Below, piece after piece: positions 7,432-44,419 of a stretch of DNA of 64,000 bases (positions within the stretch are counted from its first letter, which is position 1; every line of letters starts with the position of its first letter). Where the stretch lies: NCBI GenBank assembly GCA_964473745.1, contig CAYYQE010000008.1:73-64072 (forward strand), given 5' to 3'. Both the position numbers and the translations under genes were made by a program. Source of the stretch: an uncultured Candidatus Peribacteria bacterium (GTDB taxonomy: Bacteria > Patescibacteriota > Gracilibacteria > UBA1369 > UBA12473). The notes beneath the pieces were generated by a model. It saw only the letters and a list, made by a program, of their open reading frames with translations, made no database searches and was not told the origin of the DNA.

Positions 7432-9288
7432 TTATTCTTCTAGTTCGAACTCAGTTAATATAAGATCCAAATCAGATCCCTCGACATCTACCACTTGAAC
7501 ATCCGCAATCAGTGCTTCCCGATTCAACTCAAAATCTTTGATGCGCTTAAACATACTAATCAAATATGATTCATAAGTAGTTTGCACATTTTCGAAAACA
7601 TAAAAGCGAGCCTTAAGATCCACTTCCACTTGTTTAAGTTCAATAAATAAAAGCAGTTGCTCCTCGGCACTCATGGCATCAAATTCCTTTAAATTAAGAA
7701 AAACTAACGCTTCAGACGAATCTTTAGAAATTTCGTTTTCATCAAACTGAGCTGACATTTCAACCTGTAATTCTTCAATTTCATCATAATGATCAACTCC
7801 TAAATTATAGTAATCCTTAAGCTCTTGAATGTGCTCATCCAAGGTTTCAGCTCGATTAGTAGAAGCGTCCAAAAGTGTGTCCACATCTACAAAATAAAGA
7901 TTATAAAGACTTTCCAAATCCGCCACAAAAGTTTGAAGCCTAGAGGAATAATCAATCATATCTTCTTCGGTACCAATCAAAACACTAGAATCAACGCCGG
8001 TATCACCTTCTAAATCCATTTCTGGATTTCCTAGCAAAAGCCCGATGTAAATCGAAGGATCCACCCAAACTTGATCACTAGAATCAGCGGTCGTAGGGGT
8101 AACCTCATCAGGAGTTGCATCCGGGATTTCATCCACCGTATCATCTGACTCTACCACCTCAATCGGATCAGAATCCTCTCCGTCAAAAATCGAAAAATCA
8201 CCATTAATCAATTTTGGTGCTAAGAAAAATCCAGCCAAAATAATCGCTCCAATTAAAACTAGCACTCCGCAACAAAACTTAAGATGACGCGTAGTAAGAT
8301 TGGCTTCATGCAGTAATTGCTCCACCCGCTCGGTGAACGAGCCACTTATCGCCATTTCTTCCAAAGAACCTTCCTCTTTCGCTTCTGAAGACTCCACTAC
8401 TTCGCCTTCAACTATTTCGGGAGCTTCTGGTTCTTCTACTTCTTTTGGTTCGGGAGCTGATTCAGAAACCGGTTCGGGAGATTTTGGAGGCTCTGGAGAT
8501 TCTGGTTCTGATTTAGGGGCTATTGGTTCAGGGATCGGAGGCTCGGGCGACGCAGCTGGTTTAGCACTAGATTCGTCGGGTCCACCAAAGGGACTTTCAT
8601 AATTCCCAAAATCATCACTAGTTTTCGAAGTAGATTCCGGAGCCAAATCAAATGGCGAGGGTTCTGCGGTCACCGGCTTGGGGGCTATTGGATCTGGGGT
8701 TACTGGGTCTGGGGTAACTGGGTCTGGCGTTGGTTGTGGTGGCTCAGGCGTTGGTTGTGGTGGCTCAGGCGTTGGTTGTGGCGGTTCAGGCTTTGGTTGT
8801 GGCGATTCAGGCTGAGGACTCAAATCAAAAGGGCTAGGCGCCGCAGGCTCGGGCTTTGGAGGTTCAGGCTTTGGAGGCTCAGGCTTTGGAGGTTCAGACT
8901 TTGGAGATTCAGGCTTTGGAGGTTCAGGAGTCGGTTGCCCACCAGTTCCCGAATTATCAAAAGAAGCTGCCAAATCAAAAGGTGATGGTTCGGACGCTCC
9001 TGATGGAACAGGTGAATCACTTACCAATGAATCATCTGGCAACGGCTCGGGAGCCGGCTTATCCAAATCCTCTGCTGCTTTATCATTTGCCAAGGCTAAA
9101 TCTGGAACTGTTAAATCCGGTTTTGCATTTTTATTAACCGTTTTTGGACGACGACGCGGTCGACGACGACGTTTTTTAGGAGGTACAACCGTACTATCCT
9201 TCGGCAGAGTCGAATCTTTTTTTGAAGAAGTATCTACACTTTGCTCATTTTTTTGAGCATCGTCCTTTTTGATATTGTTGTCTGGCAT
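7432..9288 (-). CDS. Proline-rich low-complexity single-pass membrane protein
   Basis: A 618-aa ORF with a basic N-terminus (KKRRRRPRRRPK), PEPPKPE / PEPPQPT / DPVTP repeats, one TM helix (CCGVLVLIGAIILAGFFLAP) and an acidic C-terminal domain. Confidence 0.7.
   Translation of the reverse strand: MPDNNIKKDDAQKNEQSVDTSSKKDSTLPKDSTVVPPKKRRRRPRRRPKTVNKNAKPDLTVPDLALANDKAAEDLDKPAPEPLPDDSLVSDSPVPSGASEPSPFDLAASFDNSGTGGQPTPEPPKPESPKSEPPKPEPPKPEPPKPEPAAPSPFDLSPQPESPQPKPEPPQPTPEPPQPTPEPPQPTPDPVTPDPVTPDPIAPKPVTAEPSPFDLAPESTSKTSDDFGNYESPFGGPDESSAKPAASPEPPIPEPIAPKSEPESPEPPKSPEPVSESAPEPKEVEEPEAPEIVEGEVVESSEAKEEGSLEEMAISGSFTERVEQLLHEANLTTRHLKFCCGVLVLIGAIILAGFFLAPKLINGDFSIFDGEDSDPIEVVESDDTVDEIPDATPDEVTPTTADSSDQVWVDPSIYIGLLLGNPEMDLEGDTGVDSSVLIGTEEDMIDYSSRLQTFVADLESLYNLYFVDVDTLLDASTNRAETLDEHIQELKDYYNLGVDHYDEIEELQVEMSAQFDENEISKDSSEALVFLNLKEFDAMSAEEQLLLFIELKQVEVDLKARFYVFENVQTTYESYLISMFKRIKDFELNREALIADVQVVDVEGSDLDLILTEFELEE
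8681..8926. repeat. In-frame tandem repeats inside the Pro-rich gene
   Basis: There are 3 units of 15 nt (8681..8725, ggggttactgggtct-like). There are 4 units of 21 nt (8726..8809, ggcgttggttgtggtggctca). There are 5 units of 15 nt (8852..8926, ggctttggaggttca). Confidence 0.85.
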
Positions 9289-10506: not shown

Positions 10507-11348
10507 TTCAATAAAATATTATCAATTAATCGCACTTTTCCAAACTTTGCGGCCACCGCCACCACGGCCTCACTCTCTACACGATTGATTTTCTTTAACG
10601 AACGAGCATCTCGAATTTCAGCGTATTCATAGCTTTGAAAAGCATCACGCAATTGTTGTTCCAAAACTTTTGGCTCACACTCTCCTTGTTCAAATAATTT
10701 ATTCGCCATGCGCAATGACTGGCTTAGACTTAAGGCTAATTCACGTTCTTTTTTATTCAAATAAACATTGCGTGAGCTCATTGCCAGTCCATCTTGTTCG
10801 CGAATTGTTGGCAACACGTGCAGCTTAATTTGAGGAAAATATTTTTGGATTAACCAATCAATCACCCGCGTTTGCTGAAAATCTTTTTGCCCAAAATAAA
10901 CATCGGTTGGGCGCACTTTTTCAAAAAGCCTCTTTACTACTGTCGCCACACCAAAAAAATGATCTGGCCTAGAAACACCACACAAAACATTCGTTAACTC
11001 GCACGGCGGCTCTATTCGCGTTACATTCTTCAAACCCTCCGGATAAATTTCCTCCACAGTTGGACACCAAATTTCATCCACCCCCTCTTTTAAAAGCAAC
11101 TCCTTATCTCGCTCCAAATCACGGGGATATTTTTCAAAATCTTCACCCTCGCTAAACTGCGTCGGATTCACAAAAATACTTACCACCACTTTATCGCAAT
11201 CCCGCCGGGCCGCTTGCACCAAACTCAAATGCCCCTCATGGAGAGCACCCATGGTTGGAATAAAGCCTAAACTATTATTTGTAACTTTCATCTTGGGATG
11301 GAAATATACCATTTTCCACCTCAAATTTAAACCTAGTAACTGCCTCAC
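10497..11348 (-). CDS. panC: Pantoate-beta-alanine ligase
   Basis: The motifs GFIPTMGALHEGHLSLV and FVNPTQF are present. The start is uncertain (11348, 11312 or 11291) and the gene overlaps the panB 3' end. Confidence 0.9.
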   Translation of the reverse strand: MRQLLGLNLRWKMVYFHPKMKVTNNSLGFIPTMGALHEGHLSLVQAARRDCDKVVVSIFVNPTQFSEGEDFEKYPRDLERDKELLLKEGVDEIWCPTVEEIYPEGLKNVTRIEPPCELTNVLCGVSRPDHFFGVATVVKRLFEKVRPTDVYFGQKDFQQTRVIDWLIQKYFPQIKLHVLPTIREQDGLAMSSRNVYLNKKERELALSLSQSLRMANKLFEQGECEPKVLEQQLRDAFQSYEYAEIRDARSLKKINRVESEAVVAVAAKFGKVRLIDNILLKCL

Positions 11349-12039
11349 CTATTACCTCCTGCAAATTTACGTACTTTTTAACAAACTTCGGCGTAAAATC
11401 ACCATAAAGTCCCAATAAATCAGACGTAACTAGTACCTGCCCATCACAATTCGGCCCAGCCCCAATCCCAATTGTCGGAATTCTTAACATGTCAGTAATT
11501 TTTTTTGCTAAATCTGTGGGGATACACTCCAAGACCACGGCAAAACATCCTGCCTCCTCCAAAGCTCGTACCTCGTCCAAAATCATCTCTTCTTCTGCTG
11601 TCGTTCGACCCTTAACTTTCATTTTTCCTGCTTCTTGCGGTTTAAGCCCAGTATGTCCCATTACCGAAAATCCAGCCTCCACTAAGGCCTGACAAATCTC
11701 TGGGCACCCCTCGATTTTAATAGCTCGCACACCGGTTTCTTCAATCATACGCTCGACATTCTTGATTGCTAACTCATTCGTTTCATAAGACCCCTTTGGC
11801 ATATCCGCCACCACAAACGCCCCAGTATTCCCACGCATCACCGCCTGGGTATGACGAATCATATCGTTCATGGTTACAAAATGAGTATTTTCATAACCCA
11901 AAACAACCATTCCCAAAGAATCCCCTACTAAAATCACATCAATTCCAACTTCACTCAAAATTTGGGCCATCGGATAATCATACGCGGTTAAGACGACAAT
12001 TTTCCGATGACCCTTTAATTCACAAACAGATTGAGGCAT
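11275..12039 (-). CDS. panB: 3-methyl-2-oxobutanoate hydroxymethyltransferase
   Basis: The motifs VLTAYDYPMAQIL...VGDSLGMVVLGYENT and KIEGC are typical PanB. Confidence 0.9.
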   Translation of the reverse strand: MPQSVCELKGHRKIVVLTAYDYPMAQILSEVGIDVILVGDSLGMVVLGYENTHFVTMNDMIRHTQAVMRGNTGAFVVADMPKGSYETNELAIKNVERMIEETGVRAIKIEGCPEICQALVEAGFSVMGHTGLKPQEAGKMKVKGRTTAEEEMILDEVRALEEAGCFAVVLECIPTDLAKKITDMLRIPTIGIGAGPNCDGQVLVTSDLLGLYGDFTPKFVKKYVNLQEVIGEAVTRFKFEVENGIFPSQDESYK

Positions 12040-12684
12040 CTATAAATTAAATAAACTCGTTGAAATATCTCCGTAACTAAAAGTTGCCGCACTTGTCCCA
12101 AGACCCAAAGCAGCAAAAAGTAAGCCGATTGGAATAGCCGCTAGACCTCCTAAAAGAACCGACAAAATCGAAACTCCAATAGTTTTCCAGAAGCCAAATC
12201 CAAAAATCTGATTCATCATTGTAAAGAAAAGAACTAAGAACCAAACCAAAGCAATCAAACTACCAACAAGAGGAACGATGTTAAGAACCATCGGAAGCAT
12301 TAAAAAACCATAAAGCCCGATAAAACCCTTTAAATCTCCTTGCTTAGTTCCTTTAAAACTCAAGGACACGCTATAAATCGCTACAACGCAAATTAACCCA
12401 ACAATAAAGCCCATCAGGCCAGACCCAATCATGTCCATGAGGCCATAATTAACGTCAATACCAAAAGAGGCGGCTAATTCATTTGCTCCACGCATGGTCA
12501 TCCATTGAGAAAACACACTAGCGATTTGAGCTAACGCTAGAAAAAGAAGCCCATAAACAAAATAGTCAGAATTTTTAACAACTCGGACCATTGCCGCGCG
12601 ATCACGCGTCAATACGCCCTTAAGGTCTGCTAAAAGCCCTACTTTTCCGGCCGATGAAGGCGCGGCGGGAGGTGTTTTTTTCAT
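12040..12684 (-). CDS. Polytopic membrane protein, unknown function (Yip1-like?)
   Basis: A 214-aa ORF with about 5 TM helices, tightly packed immediately upstream of panB on the same strand. Confidence 0.5.
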   Translation of the reverse strand: MKKTPPAAPSSAGKVGLLADLKGVLTRDRAAMVRVVKNSDYFVYGLLFLALAQIASVFSQWMTMRGANELAASFGIDVNYGLMDMIGSGLMGFIVGLICVVAIYSVSLSFKGTKQGDLKGFIGLYGFLMLPMVLNIVPLVGSLIALVWFLVLFFTMMNQIFGFGFWKTIGVSILSVLLGGLAAIPIGLLFAALGLGTSAATFSYGDISTSLFNL

Positions 12685-33572: not shown

Positions 33573-34463
33573 CTAAAACTGCACATTTTGGCGTTTCAAT
33601 TTTGAGCGGCCCAATTCTGATTCCTTTAGGTGATAATCCGCCAACACAATCCCCAGCTGCTCCGCCGTCGTTCGAGCCATTTTACGAGGACCCGGCATCC
33701 ATTCCTCTACTCCATCCATCACAATCGCCCCCCAAAATTCTCCATAAAGATCACGAATCGCAGCAATCATTCGACCATCATTTACCAAATGCCGACGATC
33801 TTTCCCAAGCAACTCTTCTATCCCCAATAATTCCTGCGTCGAAAGCTGATAATCACCCCAAGTCACTTTTACTTCTAAATGCCCAGTAACCTGATTTTTA
33901 AGGGCAATTGCCCCTTTTGGTGCCTGCGTAGCCAAAGCTAATTTACTACTTATTCGCGTTAACATTTTATCAATATCGCCTTTGAAATCATGCATCATTT
34001 TTGAAACATCATACATGGCCACTAATTCTTGATTAGCCCACTGCAAACGTTGGTTTACCACCTTAAAAAGAGCTAATAAAAGAGCACTCGCTTCATCAGG
34101 TTTTTCCACCAAAAACTTCTCAAAATCTGCTTTTTTAAGCACCAAAACTTCAACATCATCAATCGCCACAGCCGAAGCATTCCGCGGTTTTGCTGAAAGC
34201 AACGAACCTTCACCAAAAATCGCTCCCGGATCCAAAATAGCCAATACTTTTTTCTGATCATCACGAATTCTTTTGGCAATTTCAATATGCCCACTCAATA
34301 AAAGATACAGCTCTGAACTTGTTTCTGCTTCTTCAAAAATCAATTCCTTTTTTTCAAAATGCTTCTTTTCCCAAATTCCTTTTCCAGAAATAATTCTTTC
34401 TTGCTCTTCTGGAGCAAGGGCGGAAAAAAAATCTTCAATCTGTGAATGAAAACTCTTAGCCAT
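33573..34463 (-). CDS. Cyclic-nucleotide-binding domain protein with C-terminal GAF-like region
   Basis: A cNMP-binding beta-barrel pattern is present (ELYLLLSGHIEIAKRI...LDPGAIFGEGSLL...RNASAVA). The likely start is MAKSFHS at 34463, overlapping the pilT stop by 8 nt. Confidence 0.7.
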   Translation of the reverse strand: MAKSFHSQIEDFFSALAPEEQERIISGKGIWEKKHFEKKELIFEEAETSSELYLLLSGHIEIAKRIRDDQKKVLAILDPGAIFGEGSLLSAKPRNASAVAIDDVEVLVLKKADFEKFLVEKPDEASALLLALFKVVNQRLQWANQELVAMYDVSKMMHDFKGDIDKMLTRISSKLALATQAPKGAIALKNQVTGHLEVKVTWGDYQLSTQELLGIEELLGKDRRHLVNDGRMIAAIRDLYGEFWGAIVMDGVEEWMPGPRKMARTTAEQLGIVLADYHLKESELGRSKLKRQNVQF

Positions 34464-35520
34464 TAGAAATTTTTTGTTTAAAGGCTTCGATATCATGGGC
34501 TTTGGCCATCGCTGCCTCGGGAGTTACTGTACCATTTGCCACTAAATCAGCCAAGGAATCATCCAAAGTTTGCATCCCCTCACTTTTACCAATTTGAAGC
34601 ATAGAATAAATCTGGTGCGTTTGTCCTTCTTTCACACAATTACGCATCGCATCGTTCATTACCAATATTTCAAAAGCAGCGGCCCGACCTTTTCCATCAG
34701 CACGCGGCACCAAAGTCTGCGAAATCACTCCAAGTAATCCTACTGAAAGCTGAGCTCTAATCTGTTCTTGTTGATAAGCCGGAAAAACATCAATCATTCG
34801 ATCTACAGTTTGAGCCGCATCCGTAGTATGCAAAGTTGAAAGCACTAAATGCCCGGTTTCTGCCAAAGTAATGGCCGCAGCAATTGTCTCTAAATCACGC
34901 ATTTCTCCTACCAAAACCACGTCTGGATCCTGCCGCAAAGCCGACCGAATGGCCGTACTAAACGAGTCAGTATGCGAATTAACTTCACGTTGCGTAATTA
35001 AAGCGTTTTTTGAGGTATGAATAAACTCAATCGGATCTTCCACTGTAATAATATGACATTTGCGATTCGTATTCGCGTAATCAATCATCGACGCCAAAGT
35101 TGTGGACTTTCCACTCCCGGTTGGACCAGTAACCAAAATTAATCCCCGCGGCTTCATGGCAAATTCCCCAAAAATCGGGGGCAACCCCATTGACTCCAAC
35201 GAAGGCGGGCTACTGGGAATCGACCGGAAAGCAAGGGCAGTCCCCTCCTTCTCCTGATACAAATTAACTCTAAATCGACCCACATTCGGCGATCCATAAG
35301 AAAAATCTACTTCCTTGTGTTCCTGAAAAATAAGAAACTTCTTCTCTCCCGCTACTTTTTGCGCTATGGCTAGAATTTCTTCTTCTGTTAAAGCCGGCAT
35401 TTTATCTGTTGAAAAAAGCTCACCATTTGACTGACGAATAACCGGTGGACTCCCCACTTTTAGATGGAGATCCGGAGCATGACTCTCTACCACTTGTTTT
35501 AAGATCAAATCAATATCCAT
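34456..35520 (-). CDS. pilT: Type IV pilus retraction ATPase PilT
   Basis: A Walker A motif (GPTGSGKST), the GEMRD motif and the GHLVLSTLHT His box are present. Confidence 0.9.
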   Translation of the reverse strand: MDIDLILKQVVESHAPDLHLKVGSPPVIRQSNGELFSTDKMPALTEEEILAIAQKVAGEKKFLIFQEHKEVDFSYGSPNVGRFRVNLYQEKEGTALAFRSIPSSPPSLESMGLPPIFGEFAMKPRGLILVTGPTGSGKSTTLASMIDYANTNRKCHIITVEDPIEFIHTSKNALITQREVNSHTDSFSTAIRSALRQDPDVVLVGEMRDLETIAAAITLAETGHLVLSTLHTTDAAQTVDRMIDVFPAYQQEQIRAQLSVGLLGVISQTLVPRADGKGRAAAFEILVMNDAMRNCVKEGQTHQIYSMLQIGKSEGMQTLDDSLADLVANGTVTPEAAMAKAHDIEAFKQKISNG

Positions 35521-35619
35521 AAATTTTGGAATTTAATCCTGTTATTATAGCACAAAAGAGCATTAAAAGGAATAGTTACCGGTCGCTTTTTCAACATATC
35601 CTCCAAACCTTATAAACTC

Positions 35620-35647
35620 TTGACTTTTGTAGCGTTTAACGTATAAT
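35620..35647 (+). promoter_or_regulatory. Near-consensus sigma-70 promoter in front of GC-rich island 1
   Basis: TTGACT (35620..35625), a 16-nt spacer, then TATAAT (35642..35647). It is divergent from pilT. Confidence 0.6.
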
Positions 35648-35754
35648 AATCAGCCTTGGCTTCTACCTAGAAACCATCTCCCCCCGTGGAGAATGAGTGT
35701 CTGGCTGCCGCCAAGACGCTTGTTCTTTCACATTCTCATGCCCGGAGCATACCC

Positions 35755-36381
35755 ATGTCCCGTTCCCTCCTCATCACCCTCGGCCTCGCCCTTGGCCTCG
35801 CCCTTGGCCTCGTCGGTATCGCCTGGTTCAGCGTCTACAAATCGAACCGCCTCAACGAGCGCAACGATCTGCGCGCCGAGGTCGCCGAGTACCTGGTCGA
35901 AACCGAGAAGGAAGCCGTCGACAACGCGATGAAGATCTCCCTCGGTGCCCTCAACAACTTCCAAAAGGGTGAATTCTACCACCGCAAGTCGAAAGTCGGC
36001 GCCAAGACCGTCGGCCTCTTCTCCCACGACCTCGAGCCTGCTCTGACCTTCCTGGTCGACCTCGAGCGCGCCGTCCACGCAACCACCTTCTTCTTCAACT
36101 ACTCGAGCACCGAGCAGCAGGCCCTGTTCGACTGCAACGGCGGGTTCAACGGCTTCGCCGTCCCCGCCGCCCTGCAGCACAACCTGGGCCACATTCGGAG
36201 CTTCAAGTGGCAAGTCTCGGACCTCGAGCTCACCACCGAAGCCATCACCACCGCCCAGGCCGAGTGGGCCACGCTCAAGGAGACCATGGACGTCAGCCTG
36301 CAGACCGCCTCGGCCCTGGCCCTCGATGACAACCCCTGGCGCTGCGTGTGGCCGGACGAGGTGGACGAGGAGCAGCTCTGA
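35755..36381 (+). CDS. Hypothetical signal-anchored protein encoded in GC-rich island 1
   Basis: A GGAG sits 7 nt upstream of the ATG at 35755. The 208-aa product starts MSRSLLITLGLALGLALGLVGIAWF (TM helix), and third codon positions are very G/C-rich. The ORF is open back to a GTG at 35686. I see no recognisable domain. Confidence 0.6.
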   Translation: MSRSLLITLGLALGLALGLVGIAWFSVYKSNRLNERNDLRAEVAEYLVETEKEAVDNAMKISLGALNNFQKGEFYHRKSKVGAKTVGLFSHDLEPALTFLVDLERAVHATTFFFNYSSTEQQALFDCNGGFNGFAVPAALQHNLGHIRSFKWQVSDLELTTEAITTAQAEWATLKETMDVSLQTASALALDDNPWRCVWPDEVDEEQL

Positions 36382-36455
36382 TGGATCCCCGAACCCTCAT
36401 CCTCCTCCTGGGCCTCACCGCCGCCGCCCTCTACGACTACTGGCTGATCATCTAG
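36381..36455 (+). CDS. 24-aa hydrophobic micropeptide, translationally coupled
   Basis: The TGATG stop/start overlap at 36379..36383 links it to the upstream ORF. My translation is MDPRTLILLLGLTAAALYDYWLII, with a TAG at 36453..36455, and codon bias matches the upstream ORF. Confidence 0.4.
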   Translation: MDPRTLILLLGLTAAALYDYWLII

Positions 36456-36488
36456 GCCTGCGGAACTGTGAAACGACCGAGCGTACAT

Positions 36489-36512
36489 GCCTCCCTCATC
36501 CCCGAGGGAGGC
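36489..36512 (+). terminator. GC-rich hairpin closing island 1
   Basis: GCCTCCCTC-atcccc-GAGGGAGGC forms a 9-bp perfect stem. The downstream T-tract is weak (CTTCGCTTATAAAAATTT). Confidence 0.55.
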
Positions 36513-36575
36513 CTTCGCTTATAAAAATTTCAAACCCGCCTTCCCACGCGCCCCTGAAAATGATAAAAAAGAAGC

Positions 36576-37220
36576 ATGAACCAACGACAACAAGTAATTT
36601 TAGAAATTCAACAAGCCGCGCTCCAAATAATTCAAGAGCGCTATGAGGACTTCCCATATCACAACGCTACCCACACCGGTTTTGTGATCGAAACTGCCAA
36701 TCTCTTGGCCCAAGACGCCAAACTTCCACAAGATCAACTCGAACTACTTACTTTAATGGCTGCGGCCCACGATTTAGTCCAAACCCACGATCCTCTTGCT
36801 GACGGGTATCTTGGCGAAAACGAAAATGAATCCGCTGACTGGCTCGCTGAACAAATGCTTGCCTCAGGCCAATTCGAAGACGACGAAATCGAACAAGCTC
36901 GTCGCGGCATAGAAGCCACCTTCATCCTCCATCGCGAAGACGGTATCAAACAATCCGCTGAATTTGGTGATTTTTTAAGTGAACTTCTTTGTGACGCTGA
37001 TCTTGCCAACCTCGGCAGTCCCTGGGACGTCTATTTCCCCAAAACCAAAGACTATTTCCAAGAAATCAACCCCAACTCAACCGAAGAAGAATGGAAGCAC
37101 TATTTACGTCTTCAAGTCCCAATCCTCCTCCAACACCACTACTACACCACCGTCGCCCAAGAACGATTCCCTCATTTACGTGAAAATGCCACAAAAATAG
37201 AAGACTCCTTAAAAGCCTAA
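36576..37220 (+). CDS. HD-domain phosphohydrolase-like protein
   Basis: A 214-aa ORF with H...HD spacing (YHNATHTGFV ... AAAHDLVQTHD). Confidence 0.55.
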   Translation: MNQRQQVILEIQQAALQIIQERYEDFPYHNATHTGFVIETANLLAQDAKLPQDQLELLTLMAAAHDLVQTHDPLADGYLGENENESADWLAEQMLASGQFEDDEIEQARRGIEATFILHREDGIKQSAEFGDFLSELLCDADLANLGSPWDVYFPKTKDYFQEINPNSTEEEWKHYLRLQVPILLQHHYYTTVAQERFPHLRENATKIEDSLKA

Positions 37221-38149
37221 TCCAGCTCCAAAACCTCTGGCAACCAATTACAATAATTGCCTTCTTTTTTTAATTCTTCCCTAATTTTGCGCATTTCTTT
37301 GCGCCACATCCCTTCAGAATAATTTTCATTCAAAATCATAAACTTCCCGTGATTCACTCCTACACACCCAAACATATGATGCGAATTAAAAACCCGCACA
37401 CAAAATTCCGCATCACGCGTATTCCCACACTGCCAACAAAAATTACAGTTATACAAATCATATCCCATCACACATTCATACAACAACTCGCCAGTCATAC
37501 ATTCGGTATCATAAATATCCTTACTTTTATCCACAATATGATAAGAATTTGCCGCGTCCTCGACATCATTCATGGAATAACAATTCAAACAATTCTTGGA
37601 ATTATAAATATGATCTCCGGTGCAATTTTCGGAATGAAGCTGAACCGACGCAATATGGGGAATTTTTTCACGCAGTGCTCCCACTTTTTCCAAAACTTCT
37701 TGCTGTTTTGCCGGAGTATCGGCCCGAAGCTCAGCTATTTTTTGCAAATACTCTTCTTTGGAATAAGGGGCATTAAAAATATGAAAACTTTTTTGCCTAA
37801 GCCCCACACACCCAAAACAATCATTACAACTTTTGCAATCATAACAAAACTGCAAATCGCGTGACCCCACACATTCCTCGCAAAAATCACAGTTATAACA
37901 CCGCTCACAAAACTCACATTCATAACAAAGTTCACACTTCATGCAGTGATACGTATCGCAACAATCTTTAAGCGTATTTGGATAGTAACAATAATAAGAA
38001 TCCTCACATTTATACCCAACAAAACACATGTAGGAATCCTTGGAAAAAGACAAACAATGCACGTAATCGCAGTTCTTGTTTGTTACCGAACGCAACGCAT
38101 ATGTTGGCTGGGATTCCAGTAGTTTTTTGAATTTTTCCAAAAAGCTCAT
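37217..38149 (-). CDS. Cysteine-ladder repeat protein, paralog A (uncharacterised)
   Basis: A 310-aa protein with about 32 Cys. It contains a CxxC ladder (CMKCELCYECEFCERCYNCDFCEEC) and an internal duplication whose halves end in CNDCFGCVGLRQKSFHIFNAPYSKEEY and HHMFGCVGVNHGKFMILNENYSEGMW. Confidence 0.7.
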   Translation of the reverse strand: MSFLEKFKKLLESQPTYALRSVTNKNCDYVHCLSFSKDSYMCFVGYKCEDSYYCYYPNTLKDCCDTYHCMKCELCYECEFCERCYNCDFCEECVGSRDLQFCYDCKSCNDCFGCVGLRQKSFHIFNAPYSKEEYLQKIAELRADTPAKQQEVLEKVGALREKIPHIASVQLHSENCTGDHIYNSKNCLNCYSMNDVEDAANSYHIVDKSKDIYDTECMTGELLYECVMGYDLYNCNFCWQCGNTRDAEFCVRVFNSHHMFGCVGVNHGKFMILNENYSEGMWRKEMRKIREELKKEGNYCNWLPEVLELD

Positions 38150-38164
38150 GAGCAGATTATAACA

Positions 38165-38446
38165 CTACCCCAGATGCTTCCAAAAACATTCCTGACAATA
38201 AACAATATATTTAGATTCCGGAGAATAAGTCGAAATAATATCGTTTTGGCACTTATCACATTTTCGTTTATATAATTTACGCTCATTCCGAAGAGAAAGT
38301 CGCCTTTTTTGACGACAATCCGGACAATTTTCTGGAAACGGCAGGTCTTTTTTCTTATAAAACTTCTGTTCCTGCTCAATTATCAAAAAATCCTTTGAGC
38401 AAGCCTTACATTTTGCAACCTTATTTTCAGTAGTAGTTTCTGTCAT
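38165..38446 (-). CDS. Stand-alone double zinc-ribbon protein
   Basis: A 93-aa protein with four CxxC pairs (CKAC...CPDC...CDKC...CQEC). It is homologous to both termini of the 533-aa fusion protein. Confidence 0.7.
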   Translation of the reverse strand: MTETTTENKVAKCKACSKDFLIIEQEQKFYKKKDLPFPENCPDCRQKRRLSLRNERKLYKRKCDKCQNDIISTYSPESKYIVYCQECFWKHLG

Positions 38447-38466
38447 GATTAGAAGGGTTAAATTAT

Positions 38467-39411
38467 TTAAGAAAGTTCAGGGACAGCCAATTCTGGATAG
38501 GTCGTTGGCAAATGTTTACCATATTCACCACTAGCTCTCATCTCAGCCTTAATCTCTGCTACTTTGCGGTGCCAATCCTCCTTGGAATACTGCTTATTAA
38601 AGATGCAATATTCTGCTCGATTCATCGTAAAACACCCAAACATATGATGCGAATTGTAAACATTTTCACAATACTCCAAATCATAAGAATCGAAAACCCC
38701 GTAACAATAGTTACAATTCGTAATATTCATGGCTGACATGATTTCGTAATTAAGCTCCGACTTATAATAATTATTTGAACAATCTAGAGAATCGGTAATT
38801 TCCTCACAATTATTCAAATAAGAACAATCCTGAAGTTTCTTAACATCAAAACAGTAATAACAATTCTTACAATTATAAATATAATCACCAAAAGATTTCT
38901 CGTTTTGATCGCCTCGAAGCATTAATCGCGGCATCTTCTTTTTAAGCTCCTTCACCTGCTGATCAATCTCTTCTCGCGATATTTGCTTTAATTCAGCTAA
39001 TTTAGATTCATACTCCTTCTTTGTGAATTTCTCATTAAAAATGTGATATTCCTTGCGCCGCAAACCCACACATCCAAAACAATCATTACACCCAACCATG
39101 TCAAAACAGTGCCGTAAACTTCGTGAACTTTTACAATCCTGACACCCTTCACATTCATAACATTCATGACAGTCTACACAGTCGTAACAAAGTCGACAAT
39201 AAAAGCAATAATCACAATCCGTGCAGTCCTCAGAGTTATATAAAAAGTATCCATAATAACAATCTTCGTCATATTCACTCCCCACTAACAAATAACAATT
39301 TTTAGTGTTCCCACTGTAATTTACAAATTCGCTGTTTTCGCAATTTACATAGAGTAAACCGACTCGCGGATGCTTATTTCTAAGCTCAATCATTTGATGA
39401 ATGTAGGACAT
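38467..39411 (-). CDS. Cysteine-ladder repeat protein, paralog B (uncharacterised)
   Basis: A 314-aa protein with the same architecture and signatures as paralog A (CNDCFGCVGLRRKEYHIFNEKFTKKEY; HHMFGCFTMNRAEYCIFNKQYSKEDW). Confidence 0.7.
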   Translation of the reverse strand: MSYIHQMIELRNKHPRVGLLYVNCENSEFVNYSGNTKNCYLLVGSEYDEDCYYGYFLYNSEDCTDCDYCFYCRLCYDCVDCHECYECEGCQDCKSSRSLRHCFDMVGCNDCFGCVGLRRKEYHIFNEKFTKKEYESKLAELKQISREEIDQQVKELKKKMPRLMLRGDQNEKSFGDYIYNCKNCYYCFDVKKLQDCSYLNNCEEITDSLDCSNNYYKSELNYEIMSAMNITNCNYCYGVFDSYDLEYCENVYNSHHMFGCFTMNRAEYCIFNKQYSKEDWHRKVAEIKAEMRASGEYGKHLPTTYPELAVPELS

Positions 39412-43186: not shown

Positions 43187-43569
43187 ACCCTCCCCACAAA
43201 CATTCCCAATTCCTTAAACAACGGCACCCACGTCTCATATTTTTTGGAAAGGAGAATTTTGTAGGTTTTGGGTTCATTGCTGCGCACGACCAACACATTT
43301 TTGTTCAAACCATATTTCCCCTGCGCCACATACTCGATATCTTTAAGTGGCAGGTTAAAAACAAATGGATTCGGATGCCACGGCTTACCTGTTATCATCC
43401 CCCACACCTTGCGTGGCCATTCATAAAAAATTGTTAGCCAGTGCACGGTCGTAACTTTCAAAACTAGGCGCTGATTTGTTAAGTACAGCCGATAACTCAT
43501 GTTCATATTAAATTTCATATAACGAACATAATCGTCGACCAATAATTTTTCGTTTGGATGAAGTTGCAT
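43183..43569 (-). CDS. Hypothetical 128-aa protein (bacterial PH-domain-like?)
   Basis: An ORF with host-like composition. The pattern RLYLTNQRLVLK ... LPLKDIEYV is reminiscent of bPH/GRAM-like folds. This is a weak call. Confidence 0.4.
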   Translation of the reverse strand: MQLHPNEKLLVDDYVRYMKFNMNMSYRLYLTNQRLVLKVTTVHWLTIFYEWPRKVWGMITGKPWHPNPFVFNLPLKDIEYVAQGKYGLNKNVLVVRSNEPKTYKILLSKKYETWVPLFKELGMFVGRV

Positions 43570-43588
43570 GTGAATATTTTAGCACAGC

Positions 43589-43616
43589 TTGACTCATCCT
43601 CAACTTGCCCTACACT
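43589..43616 (+). promoter_or_regulatory. Sigma-70-type promoter in front of GC-rich island 2
   Basis: TTGACT (43589..43594), a 16-nt spacer, then TACACT (43611..43616). Confidence 0.45.
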
Positions 43617-43706
43617 TAAGCCACCTAATCTCGTGATTTCGCTCCACCCCAACCTGAGAGCGGACTCCAGAAAGGTCCCGTTCTTACACAAATTGGAGGT
43701 CCTCTC

Positions 43707-44066
43707 ATGGACTGGAAGAAGTTGGCCATCTGGGCCTTCAAGTTTCTCTATGCCGGAGGTATCGGCCTGTTCGCTGGCGGTTTGACATGGATTGTCACTG
43801 CCAACGCACTCTGCGGAGGGATCGTGCTGATCATGGCGTTCTTGACCAAGAAGTACGCCCTGAATAACCTGATCTCCGAACTCTCGCTGAAGCATCTCCT
43901 GATCGCAGAAATCGGTTGCCCCATCGTGGTGGGACTGGAGATGATCCTGGTCGTGGGCGCCTACAAGCTGCTTGGCTGGGAATTCGTCCTTGTCGTATCC
44001 ACGATTCTGGCCTTCTCTGGCTTGGCTGTAGACAGAAAGATCAACCCCTCGATCGCCAGCCAGTGA
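43707..44066 (+). CDS. Hypothetical 119-aa four-helix membrane protein in GC-rich island 2
   Basis: A strong RBS (GGAGG) lies 7 nt upstream of the ATG. There are about four hydrophobic helices and G/C-biased codon third positions. Confidence 0.6.
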   Translation: MDWKKLAIWAFKFLYAGGIGLFAGGLTWIVTANALCGGIVLIMAFLTKKYALNNLISELSLKHLLIAEIGCPIVVGLEMILVVGAYKLLGWEFVLVVSTILAFSGLAVDRKINPSIASQ

Positions 44067-44090
44067 CCTCGGTGCAAGAACGGGCAAAAA

Positions 44091-44112
44091 CCCCCGCTGA
44101 AACATGCGGGGG
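44091..44112. terminator. GC-rich hairpin after the 119-aa ORF
   Basis: CCCCCGC-tgaaacat-GCGGGGG is preceded by AAAAA, so the T-tract is better on the minus strand. It may act bidirectionally. Confidence 0.5.
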
Positions 44113-44134
44113 TCTTGCCAAACAACAATTAATA

Positions 44135-44222
44135 TTTGTGCCCGGGCACAAACTCTAACCTGCAAATCTGTGCGTACGCACAGATTCACGTGCACTAAGG
44201 CGGCGTGATTGCTCACGCCGCC
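44135..44222. repeat. Array of three further perfect palindromes/hairpins
   Basis: The three are TTTGTGCCCGGGCACAAA (44135..44152), AATCTGTGCGTACGCACAGATT (44165..44186) and GGCGGCGTG-attgct-CACGCCGCC (44199..44222). CACGTGCAC lies between the last two. Confidence 0.8.
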
Positions 44223-44231
44223 AGGGCCTGT

Positions 44232-44363
44232 CTATTCATCTTCTTCTTCGCAAGCCATAACAGCTGCTGCGATTCCGACGATAACGCCCGCTGCAACACT
44301 GATCCAGTTGGCAACCAGAGCTCCCACAAGGAGCCCGACACCCACCGCTCGTACGTACTTCAT
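44232..44363 (-). CDS. 43-aa glycine-zipper-like hydrophobic peptide with acidic tail
   Basis: This ORF is not in the supplied track. My minus-strand translation is MKYVRAVGVGLLVGALVANWISVAAGVIVGIAAAVMACEEEDE. An AGGAG lies 8 nt upstream of the ATG at 44363, and the stop is at 44232..44234. Confidence 0.45.
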   Translation of the reverse strand: MKYVRAVGVGLLVGALVANWISVAAGVIVGIAAAVMACEEEDE

Positions 44364-44379
44364 CCGAAGACTCCTATTG

Positions 44380-44419
44380 GGTTAGCGACCTAACAACTTA
44401 AATTACCAGATCGCTAACC
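44380..44419 (-). promoter_or_regulatory. Inverted repeat in the leader of the 43-aa ORF
   Basis: GGTTAGCGA (44380..44388) and TCGCTAACC (44411..44419) are separated by 22 nt, just upstream of the RBS. This could be an operator or a 5'-UTR hairpin. Confidence 0.45.

Follow-up and report, generated by a model that had tools for sequence, protein, structure and literature searches.

Does a gene-sized, GC-rich island in a bacterial chromosome of low GC content mark a recent arrival, or can such a composition be held in place for a long time? The question is raised by an island of about 850 bp in a 64 000-nucleotide stretch of contig CAYYQE010000008.1 (assembly GCA_964473745.1, positions 73 to 64 072) from an uncultured Candidatus Peribacteria bacterium; this whole stretch is called the window below. 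The island lies between a gene for a pilT-type ATPase and one for an HD-like phosphohydrolase and carries the gene of a 208-aa protein. In an earlier note, made from the letters alone, it had been described as a self-contained unit and taken for a very recent horizontal acquisition. Comparison with sibling loci supported an accessory, inserted, self-contained unit: a promoter, a Shine-Dalgarno sequence, a gene for a signal-anchored ORFan protein and a hairpin were all present, and the unit was absent from some siblings and from outgroups. Its recent acquisition was largely refuted. The most economical reading is that the GC richness is a long-maintained equilibrium and not an un-ameliorated relic, and stationary, extreme third-position GC in a low-GC genome is the most unusual property of the island.

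Base composition, divergence and age of the island

GC content was calculated in 200-bp windows, in which it rose from 0.355 at positions 35400-35699 to 0.585-0.665 across 35700-36499 and returned to 0.46 at 36500-36699. The mean of the window was 0.420 (standard deviation 0.047 in 300-bp windows), and the island, with 0.63 over the interval 35670-36520, was the sole stretch above 0.6. For the open reading frame (ORF) of the 208-aa protein the GC contents at the first, second and third codon positions (GC1/GC2/GC3) were 0.62/0.39/0.90; GC3 of the window's ORFs of at least 200 aa averaged 0.39 (standard deviation 0.09), against which the island ORF is an extreme outlier. These values bear out what the earlier note had described, namely an abrupt jump to about 60-65% GC (an estimate by eye) over a background of 40-45%, third positions that are nearly all G or C, and a fall back to background composition after the 3′ hairpin. 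Codons favoured in the island were CTC/CTG, GCC, GTC, ACC, NNC, GAG and AAG, almost a mirror image of the TTG/CTT, GCT, GTG/GTT, ACT, NNT, GAA and AAA favoured by the neighbouring and host genes. GroEL, encoded in the same window and presumed to be highly expressed, had a GC3 of 0.36 and a third-position C content (C3) of 0.12, and translational selection for host-preferred codons was therefore rejected as the cause of the island's GC3. The coding strand was C-rich (skew about −0.18), not G-rich, and without G-runs.

Sibling loci were found by searching with the HD protein (orthologues of 50-83% identity), and their contexts were then compared; a scan of GTDB genomes with pilT, which is too conserved for finding siblings, had led no closer than to relatives of about 50% identity, spread over many phyla. 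The allele set comprised three members: that of the window, that of L092/L093 (GCA_964459205.1; 193 aa, L092:5280-5858, at the same pilT/HD site) and that of L088/L094, the L094/L095 allele being identical to L088. On the short contig L088 the encoded protein is P0002 (209 aa, 27% identical, E = 1.6e-9), and one end of the contig is homologous to the window's pilT-proximal spacer, the other to the beginning of its HD gene, which identifies the same locus in a sibling organism. One sibling genome is labelled Candidatus Peregrinibacteria at NCBI. The pilT-HD spacer measured 983-1055 bp where filled (window and L092), 96 bp in the empty sites of L090/L091 (GCA_018659585.1) and 91 bp in those of L096/L097, and was likewise empty in the more distant relatives L099 (170 bp), L101 (about 80 bp) and L102 (148 bp). 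The comparison cut both ways for the earlier note: the island was absent from several siblings, and divergent alleles occupied the same site in two lineages. A tree of the concatenated cNMP-binding protein, pilT and HD sequences had the topology ((window,L090)100,(L092,L094)54),L096, with L099 as outgroup, and from this topology the empty site was taken as ancestral and the module as gained.

Protein identity was 55% between the window and L092, 26% between the window and L094, and 28% between L092 and L094. All three alleles had a GC content of 0.63-0.65, a GC3 of 0.90-0.91 and a C3 of 0.61-0.65, and GC3 was 0.90-0.91 even at codons whose amino acid had changed. Non-synonymous divergence (dN) in the island was 0.34-0.90, three to seven times the 0.08-0.28 of the flanks; the proportion of synonymous differences in the island (pS) was low, 0.27-0.41, and the nominal ratio of dN to synonymous divergence (dS) was at least 1, while dS of the flanks was saturated at 1-2. 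Third positions of distant alleles were 53-55% identical, about 48% being expected from composition alone. Their differences were mostly between C and G (59 of 91 and 53 of 86), compared with only 8-13 of about 170 in pilT, where exchanges between GC and AT dominated. Third positions of the island are near saturation and have been replaced many times, but inside the G/C class. It is because they have turned over mostly between C and G with GC3 still at 0.90-0.91 that the GC richness is read as an equilibrium, and since GC3 has stayed at 0.90 down to 26% protein identity, a force other than history must hold the composition. By a rough calculation, a neutrally decaying import would by now show a GC3 of about 0.5-0.6. 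Nor is the insertion recent, since flank identity between carriers was about 75-85% throughout and flank dS is 1-2; next to the island the flanks were no more alike (about 80%) than elsewhere. The very recent horizontal acquisition proposed in the note is not supported by these comparisons.

Assembly chimerism was excluded because the island was recovered in seven independent contigs from different samples, JGI Ga0118720_1000493 (the window) and six from other JGI/ENA assemblies, at 98.9-100% identity. Among them the module varied at three places (two single-nucleotide polymorphisms and a 12-nt repeat indel). L003 and L005 lack 12 nt in frame at 35782-35793, by which one GGCCTCGCCCTT unit is removed and GLAL lost from the anchor; L006 and L007 have the synonymous change 35856 C>T; and L001 has 36191 A>C (His146Pro). 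Some 20 kb of flanks held about eight variants. The repeat polymorphism looks like slipped-strand variation, by which the length of the anchor would change by four residues. Stability of the allele within the population argues against rapid cassette switching.

Carriers of the module did not form a clean clade, as L090, the closest relative of the window by its flanks, lacks it. The window was joined with L090 in the cNMP gene tree (bootstrap 100) and with L092 in the pilT tree (72), the HD tree likewise moving it towards L092, and in sliding comparisons it was nearer to L090 outside about 34.6-38.6 kb and equally near or nearer to L092 inside. This suggests an old homologous-recombination tract, at about 34600-38600, that includes the island; on modest evidence, homologous recombination in the flanks may have swapped presence for absence of the module between lineages, a process for which no mobility machinery is needed. 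The right junction and the region upstream of HD were nearly identical (89%) in the window and L092. No integrase or transposase family was found among the called neighbours, in agreement with the earlier note. The whole 64 kb held no tRNA or tmRNA gene (ARAGORN) and no Rfam family that reached its gathering score. Neither a terminal inverted repeat nor a convincing target duplication was found at the module ends. The sole direct repeat near them was a short, imperfect one in L094 (79% over 19 nt), with one copy in the promoter's −10 region and the other upstream of HD; it and a flanking AAAAGG(G)A(G)G repeat were judged too weak to interpret.

Homologues of the 208-aa protein were searched for widely. 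Nothing significant came from sequence searches against Pfam, PHROGs, NCBIfam, PADLOC and PDB, in line with the note, in which the protein had no recognisable domain. An HMMER search of 1.84 billion representative proteins returned the protein itself and one true relative, P0002; P0003 (E = 3.6e-4 in the same search), a repetitive low-complexity protein, was disregarded. With a family profile no further members were found in a set of 5.8 billion proteins and no relative in viral sequences; viral, phage and plasmid collections held no homologue, and no sampled high-GC organism carried one. Scans with the leader motif gave a single chance match in an unrelated gene in metagenomes (L089), and nothing or a chance match (L098) in viral contigs. 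None having been found outside, homologues appear to be confined to this clade.

Anatomy of the inserted module

The filled sites (window, L092 and L094) keep the borders of the empty ones, AAAAGGAA(G) on one side and CCTTCCC on the other, within the divergent pilT/HD intergenic spacer, and the limits of the insert were set accordingly (table 1). The empty sites of L090/L091 and L096/L097 read AAAAGGAAG-(4-7 nt loop)-C(C)TTCCC, a small inverted repeat (GGAAG..CTTCC). Promoter and leader lie inside the insert although their GC content is only about 0.49; the extent of 35670-36520 given in the note thus holds for the GC-rich part, and the insert, judged by the sibling empty sites, reaches further on both sides.

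Table 1. Features of the inserted module, of its flanking genes and of a second GC-rich locus in the window.
Feature	Position	Strand	Basis or remark
Whole inserted module, about 965 bp (ends approximate)	35574..36538	+	borders common to empty and filled sibling sites
Sigma-70-type promoter, TTGACT-N16-TATAAT	35620..35647	+	11 of 12 consensus positions
Conserved 5′ leader, about 100 nt	35654..35754	+	86-93% identity of core among alleles
Leader hairpin P1	35657-35676	+	RNA folding
Leader linker CAUCUCCCCC	between P1 and P2	+	invariant among alleles
Leader hairpin P2, imperfect, about 20 bp, several G-U pairs	35686-35731	+	RNA folding
Shine-Dalgarno sequence GGAG	35744-35747	+	7 nt upstream of ATG at 35755
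Coding sequence, 208-aa protein	35755..36381	+	ATG and Shine-Dalgarno sequence, GC3 0.90, homologues in sibling alleles
12-nt tandem repeat (GGCCTCGCCCTT-like), encoding (GLAL)n in the membrane anchor	35777..35812	+	repeat families D1/D2
24-codon ORF (MDPRTLILLLGLTAAALYDYWLII), TGATG overlap with main stop	36381..36455	+	lineage-specific, status uncertain
Two-tier 3′ hairpin, outer stem AGCG/CGCU	36480..36519	+	folding
Inner 9-bp stem GCCUCCCUC/GAGGGAGGC	36489-36497/36504-36512	+	folding
pilT-type ATPase, left flank, core gene, transcribed away from module	34456..35520	−	Pfam T2SSE, E = 1.4e-48
HD-like phosphohydrolase, right flank, core gene	36576..37220	+	weak HD/PDEase matches only
ORF of island 2, 119-aa multi-transmembrane protein, GC3 0.77	43707..44066	+	ORF and composition

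Both the near-consensus promoter and the GGAG ribosome-binding site of the earlier note were found in place. The promoter was the sole match of a promoter scan within 35300-36800, and TTGACTTTT with a −10-like TA(T)AAT occurs at the equivalent place in L092 and L094. In the leader that follows, a core of about 80 nt was 86-93% identical among alleles, in which the coding sequences were 50-73% identical and the flanks saturated at silent sites. Folding z-scores of −3.3 to −4.3 for the sense strand, against −1.75 for the antisense strand, argue for an RNA-level element on the + strand. The linker pairs with the GGAG sequence in the minimum-free-energy fold of the window. No Rfam match at gathering score was obtained for the leader in the window or L088, the only hit (sX6, 10.5 bits, E = 4) lying on the opposite strand inside the coding sequence. 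Conservation as an upstream peptide was ruled out because a 1-nt indel shifts the frame, only MSVWL being common to the alleles. No further copies of the leader or the 3′ block were found in the window or the sibling loci. Abundant mRNAs for envelope proteins (ompA, S-layer genes) have long structured 5′ untranslated regions. The island resembles them in its strong promoter and its leader of about 100 nt with stable 5′ hairpins before a predicted envelope-protein gene, and differs in that its leader has no sequence or Rfam relationship to theirs.

At the 3′ end, folding of the two-tier hairpin gave z-scores of −3.3 in the window, −2.7 in L092 and −4.5 in L094. Its position is conserved, and CCTCCC/GGGAGG of the window and L092 is replaced by CCCCCC/GGGGGG in L094, which amounts to one compensatory pair. 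The hairpin is likely to be the end of the transcript or to stabilise it.

In all three alleles the ORF was intact over 193-209 codons with ATG and Shine-Dalgarno sequence, the chance of such a frame staying open, given position-specific composition, being 0.038 per allele. GC2 was lowest on the + frame in every allele, as part of a period-3 composition, and all indels were frame-preserving, including a 22-codon gap and the population-level repeat indel. The 208-aa gene is a protein gene on the + strand. Its product, a signal-anchored protein as the note had said, combines a signal anchor near the N-terminus (residues 5-23) with an all-helical domain and contains Cys127 and Cys197. Across the alleles the N-terminal segment was hydrophobic (Kyte-Doolittle value 1.8-2.5), the motifs C-x-G-x-FNG and (N/D)PW(R)C were conserved, and exactly two Cys residues stood 70 residues apart in 3/3 (127/197, 108/178 and 124/194). 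An AlphaFold2 model from a two-sequence alignment showed a long N-terminal helix followed by a helical bundle (predicted local distance difference test score, pLDDT, 67; predicted template modelling score, pTM, 0.58). Positive charges flanking the anchor in L092 and L094 favour an N-in/C-out orientation. The protein is predicted to be single-pass, N-in/C-out, with an uncleaved signal anchor, and its extracytoplasmic domain, with the Cys pair outside the cytoplasm, would be disulfide-bonded. We infer that the protein represents a new family of ORFan envelope proteins, carried on a chromosomal module of moron-like kind and having a putative role at the envelope or surface. Adjacent as the gene is to pilT, a type IV pilin or pseudopilin was considered and rejected for want of a class III signal sequence: the N-termini MSRSLLITLGLALGL, MSRSRSSRLPAILGG and MKTRTFVKIAIVLG are without the G-F/M-T-L-x-E motif, and no pilin family of Pfam or NCBIfam matched.

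The coupled micropeptide of the earlier note stood in part. The 24-codon ORF overlaps the main stop codon through TGATG, is preceded by GGAG and shares the codon bias of the island, with G or C as the last letter in 22 codons out of 24. Neither L092 nor L088/L094 has this ORF; in both, the equivalent 3′ stretch is shorter and non-coding. Its start resembles the N-terminus of the main protein (R[ST]L[LI]..LGL), and 36394-36417 (24 nt) is a 75% copy of 35765-35788 (repeat family D1), so it may be the remnant of a partial duplication.

To the left of the module lie pilT, syntenic in all relatives compared, and genes for a cNMP-binding protein, UMP kinase, RRF, an M50 protease and dnaA; to the right lie the HD-like hydrolase, Cys-rich proteins and GroES/EL. 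The HD gene begins about 8-10 nt past a conserved A-rich, −10-like block (AAAATGATAAAAAA/ATGCTACAAAATACAC; window 36545-36578, and the empty sites of L090 and L096), which suggests that its mRNA may be leaderless or have a very short leader. The −10 region of the island weakly resembles this A-rich block (19 nt, 79% in L094). Further right, on the − strand at 37217-39411, two paralogous Cys-rich proteins (310 and 314 aa, with many CxxC and no Pfam match) surround a 93-aa zf_Tbcl protein. The arrangement is kept in most of the sibling loci compared (L090/L091, L092/L093 and the window contigs); L096/L097 are without the 310-aa gene, L094 differs, and one copy is length-variable or absent.

Weighing the explanations

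Morons in the sense of Hendrix are extra DNA relative to related genomes, with deviant GC content and their own promoter and terminator (PMC3594210), as in the phage example HK97 gene 15 (Cumby et al. 2012, PMC3594210). The island is likewise extra DNA between genes adjacent in relatives (spacers of 80-170 vs 983-1055 bp), deviates in GC (0.63 vs 0.42) and GC3 (0.90 vs about 0.39), and carries a single small membrane-protein gene. It has a predicted sigma-70-type promoter of its own and a 3′ hairpin with no U-tract that the terminator scan did not call. Unlike a phage moron it stands among core genes (dnaA, M50 protease, RRF, UMP kinase, pilT, GroES/EL); it is old, with divergent alleles at one site, its deviation in composition is upheld and not transient, and a long, structured and conserved leader precedes its gene. 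No phage gene was found among the neighbours, PHROGs gave no match and nothing turned up in viral and phage collections. As it is not in a prophage, it was not classed as a phage moron. A classical genomic island or integrative element was rejected on finding no integrase or transposase among the called neighbours, no tRNA in the 64 kb and only the one short imperfect direct repeat of L094. With flexible genomic islets and accessory ORFan genes, which are exchanged through homologous recombination in conserved flanks, the island shares presence or absence at a fixed site, the lack of mobility genes and discordant trees of adjacent genes; it differs in being a single gene whose GC excess of 21 points and GC3 of 0.90 persist across deep allele divergence.

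A very recent acquisition from a high-GC donor, still un-ameliorated, would account for the abrupt jump in composition, for a codon usage opposite to the host's and for the absence of the module from L090, the closest relative by flanking genes; it is nevertheless rendered very unlikely by same-site alleles that keep their GC3 at 26-55% amino acid identity in two other lineages, by third positions turned over mostly between C and G, by flanks that are no more alike beside the island than elsewhere, and by searches in which 1.84 billion proteins yielded the sibling allele only and the viral, phage and plasmid sets none. Repeated import or cassette replacement at a preferred site, from a high-GC source outside the sampling (for instance the gene pool of a phage, a plasmid or a host cell), is a less remote though still improbable explanation. 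It would give stationary high GC without in-situ selection, and a patchy distribution, and it fits both the insertion in the loop of the GGAAG..CTTCC inverted repeat of the empty sites and the existence of other GC3-rich promoter-gene-hairpin modules in the clade. Against it, no homologue turned up in such a reservoir, and the locus showed no integrase, transposase or tRNA, no terminal inverted repeat and no convincing target duplication; promoter and leader, which are AT-richer, accompany the module and are 86-93% conserved, and the 89% identity of the right junction and HD upstream region between the window and L092 suggests descent in place.

The vls locus of Borrelia has a GC content of 49% in a genome of 28.6% (PMC11499132), and a variable surface-antigen expression site of the vls or pilE type, with GC tied to gene conversion from silent cassettes, would match a conserved promoter and leader ahead of a hypervariable helical protein of surface type (its surface role being putative), a GC about 21 points above the genome, as in vls (PMC11499132), a composition that is evidently maintained, and a micro-ORF resembling the 5′ fragment of a second copy. 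There is little to recommend it once the other observations are set beside these: a tblastn search of the other 63 kb of the window and of the sibling loci, made with all three alleles, gave nothing below E = 0.29 that could be a paralogue or silent cassette, the seven assemblies held only three variants with no segmental switching seen, and the locus is chromosomal, its coding strand C-rich with no G-runs or G4-type clustering. Least credible is that the island is not a + strand protein gene at all, and instead an assembly chimera, a structured RNA or a minus-strand gene. Gene callers did pick minus-strand ORFs of 128-203 aa in L002-L007 and L092/L093, and long ORFs do exist in several frames and on both strands; the earlier statement that every frame is open must be qualified in that the antisense frames are interrupted in the window. 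The antisense ORFs vary in frame and extent between alleles, whereas the + ORF is intact in all of them, the period-3 composition and the lowest GC2 fall on the + frame, promoter, G-U-containing leader and hairpin all indicate the + strand, no Rfam match was obtained, and seven independent contigs carry the island. A 656-aa 'pilT' or 'T2SSE' called in L094/L095 is an artefact of an antisense frame open through the island into pilT; such a fusion is impossible in the window, where the ORF that runs through the upstream spacer is in another frame than the pilT ATG. Given the wrong-strand calls, members of the family are probably hidden from protein databases.

The explanation preferred here, and considered probable though well short of certain, sees the island as an accessory transcription unit of about 965 bp, chromosomal and moron-like, that has long been kept in the pilT/HD spacer and maintained GC-rich. 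A subclade of Peregrinibacteria-like bacteria would have gained it by insertion in the promoter spacer between the divergent pilT and HD genes and then retained it for long, its patchy distribution reflecting one gain followed by loss, or by exchange through homologous recombination in the conserved flanks. Transcription from the near-consensus sigma-70 promoter would start at about 35654; the leader of about 100 nt, with its two hairpins, may stabilise the 5′ end, control translation or both, and the invariant CUCCCCC linker could pair with the GGAG sequence. The ORF would be translated into a single-pass protein with a helical domain of about 180 aa and its conserved Cys pair outside the cytoplasm, and the two-tier GC hairpin would end or protect the transcript. 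Fast change of the protein with frame, anchor, motifs and Cys spacing kept would suit a surface-exposed accessory factor under diversifying selection or weak constraint. What keeps GC3 at 0.90, mostly as C, would be either selection acting on the composition of the nucleic acid or a recombination process biased towards GC; GC-biased gene conversion and selection on composition have been put forward as a general hypothesis (PMC4450053).

Several points weigh against this explanation. The alleles number three, all from metagenome assemblies, and a high-GC reservoir outside the sampled organisms is a possible source. A dN/dS of about 1 also fits relaxed constraint in place of an arms race. The recombination signal is modest (bootstrap 54-78%, identity differences of a few percent). 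The leader's consensus fold has 28 pairs with zero compensatory changes, so that the fold, in a sequence too conserved for it, is without covariation support. The hairpin that the note had called a terminator does fold, its 9-bp stem included (z −3.3 in the window), but no T-run or U-tract follows it and a terminator scan gave no call, so termination is a conjecture from the fold. The AlphaFold2 model, built on two sequences, is moderately confident, Foldseek returned only generic or designed helical bundles (the best PDB match, at E = 0.2, being a designed one), and the anchor charges of the window allele are ambiguous, with 1 K/R on the N side and 3 K/R and 2 D/E on the C side.

Related modules and wider meaning

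A second, milder island (island 2) lies at 43600-44400 of the window (GC 0.52-0.575), with a TTGACT-N17-TACACT promoter, a GC hairpin and a leader that, by eye and unaligned, looks conserved with that of L092. The L092 orthologue (11800-12350) is 65% identical, with a GC3 of 0.79; in sibling assemblies the gene callers give a 233-aa minus-strand ORF instead. L092 holds a further module at 10930-11780 (GC 0.58-0.685) that is absent from the window, where 43569 to 43707 spans 138 nt. It has a TTGACA-N17-TAATAT promoter, a leader of about 110 nt and a 200-aa lipoprotein-like ORF (MTLRSLLPFLLVGLTATGC...; GC3 about 0.82, no Pfam match), and here too the gene caller annotated the antisense strand. 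A separate GC bump at 8480-9000 of the window (0.557) is unrelated to the island and consists of tandem low-complexity repeats (GGTTGTGGTGGCTCAGGCGTT, GGCTTTGGAGGTTCA...), probably inside a long coding region of the minus strand whose product would be rich in Pro, Glu and Lys.

The succession of promoter, leader, GC3-rich envelope gene and hairpin appears, from sequence comparison, to be a recurring module type in the clade. It is a tentative proposal, and one open to considerable doubt, that this Peregrinibacteria subclade (GC about 42%) keeps envelope genes with strong promoters and structured leaders at an off-genome compositional equilibrium through a locus-specific force. The proposed class would comprise the island (GC3 0.90), island 2 with its L092 orthologue (0.77-0.79) and the lipoprotein-like module of L092 (about 0.82), and the force could be gene conversion biased towards GC, at accessory loci prone to recombination, or selection for the composition of mRNA or DNA. 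If so, the class would be a gene-scale bacterial counter-example to amelioration, and the best case outside Borrelia vls.

Deviant GC content is routinely taken as a sign of recent transfer, and the island shows the opposite: once inserted, it has kept its GC3 at 0.90. The repeated wrong-strand calls mean that members of GC3-rich families are probably under-represented in protein databases. New here are an ORFan envelope-protein family, its role being predicted, and a conserved, unclassified 5′ leader, in a lineage that belongs to a candidate phylum with almost no experimental biology. If the force that holds the composition is biased gene conversion or selection on composition, the locus could serve as a test case for what determines base composition in bacteria.

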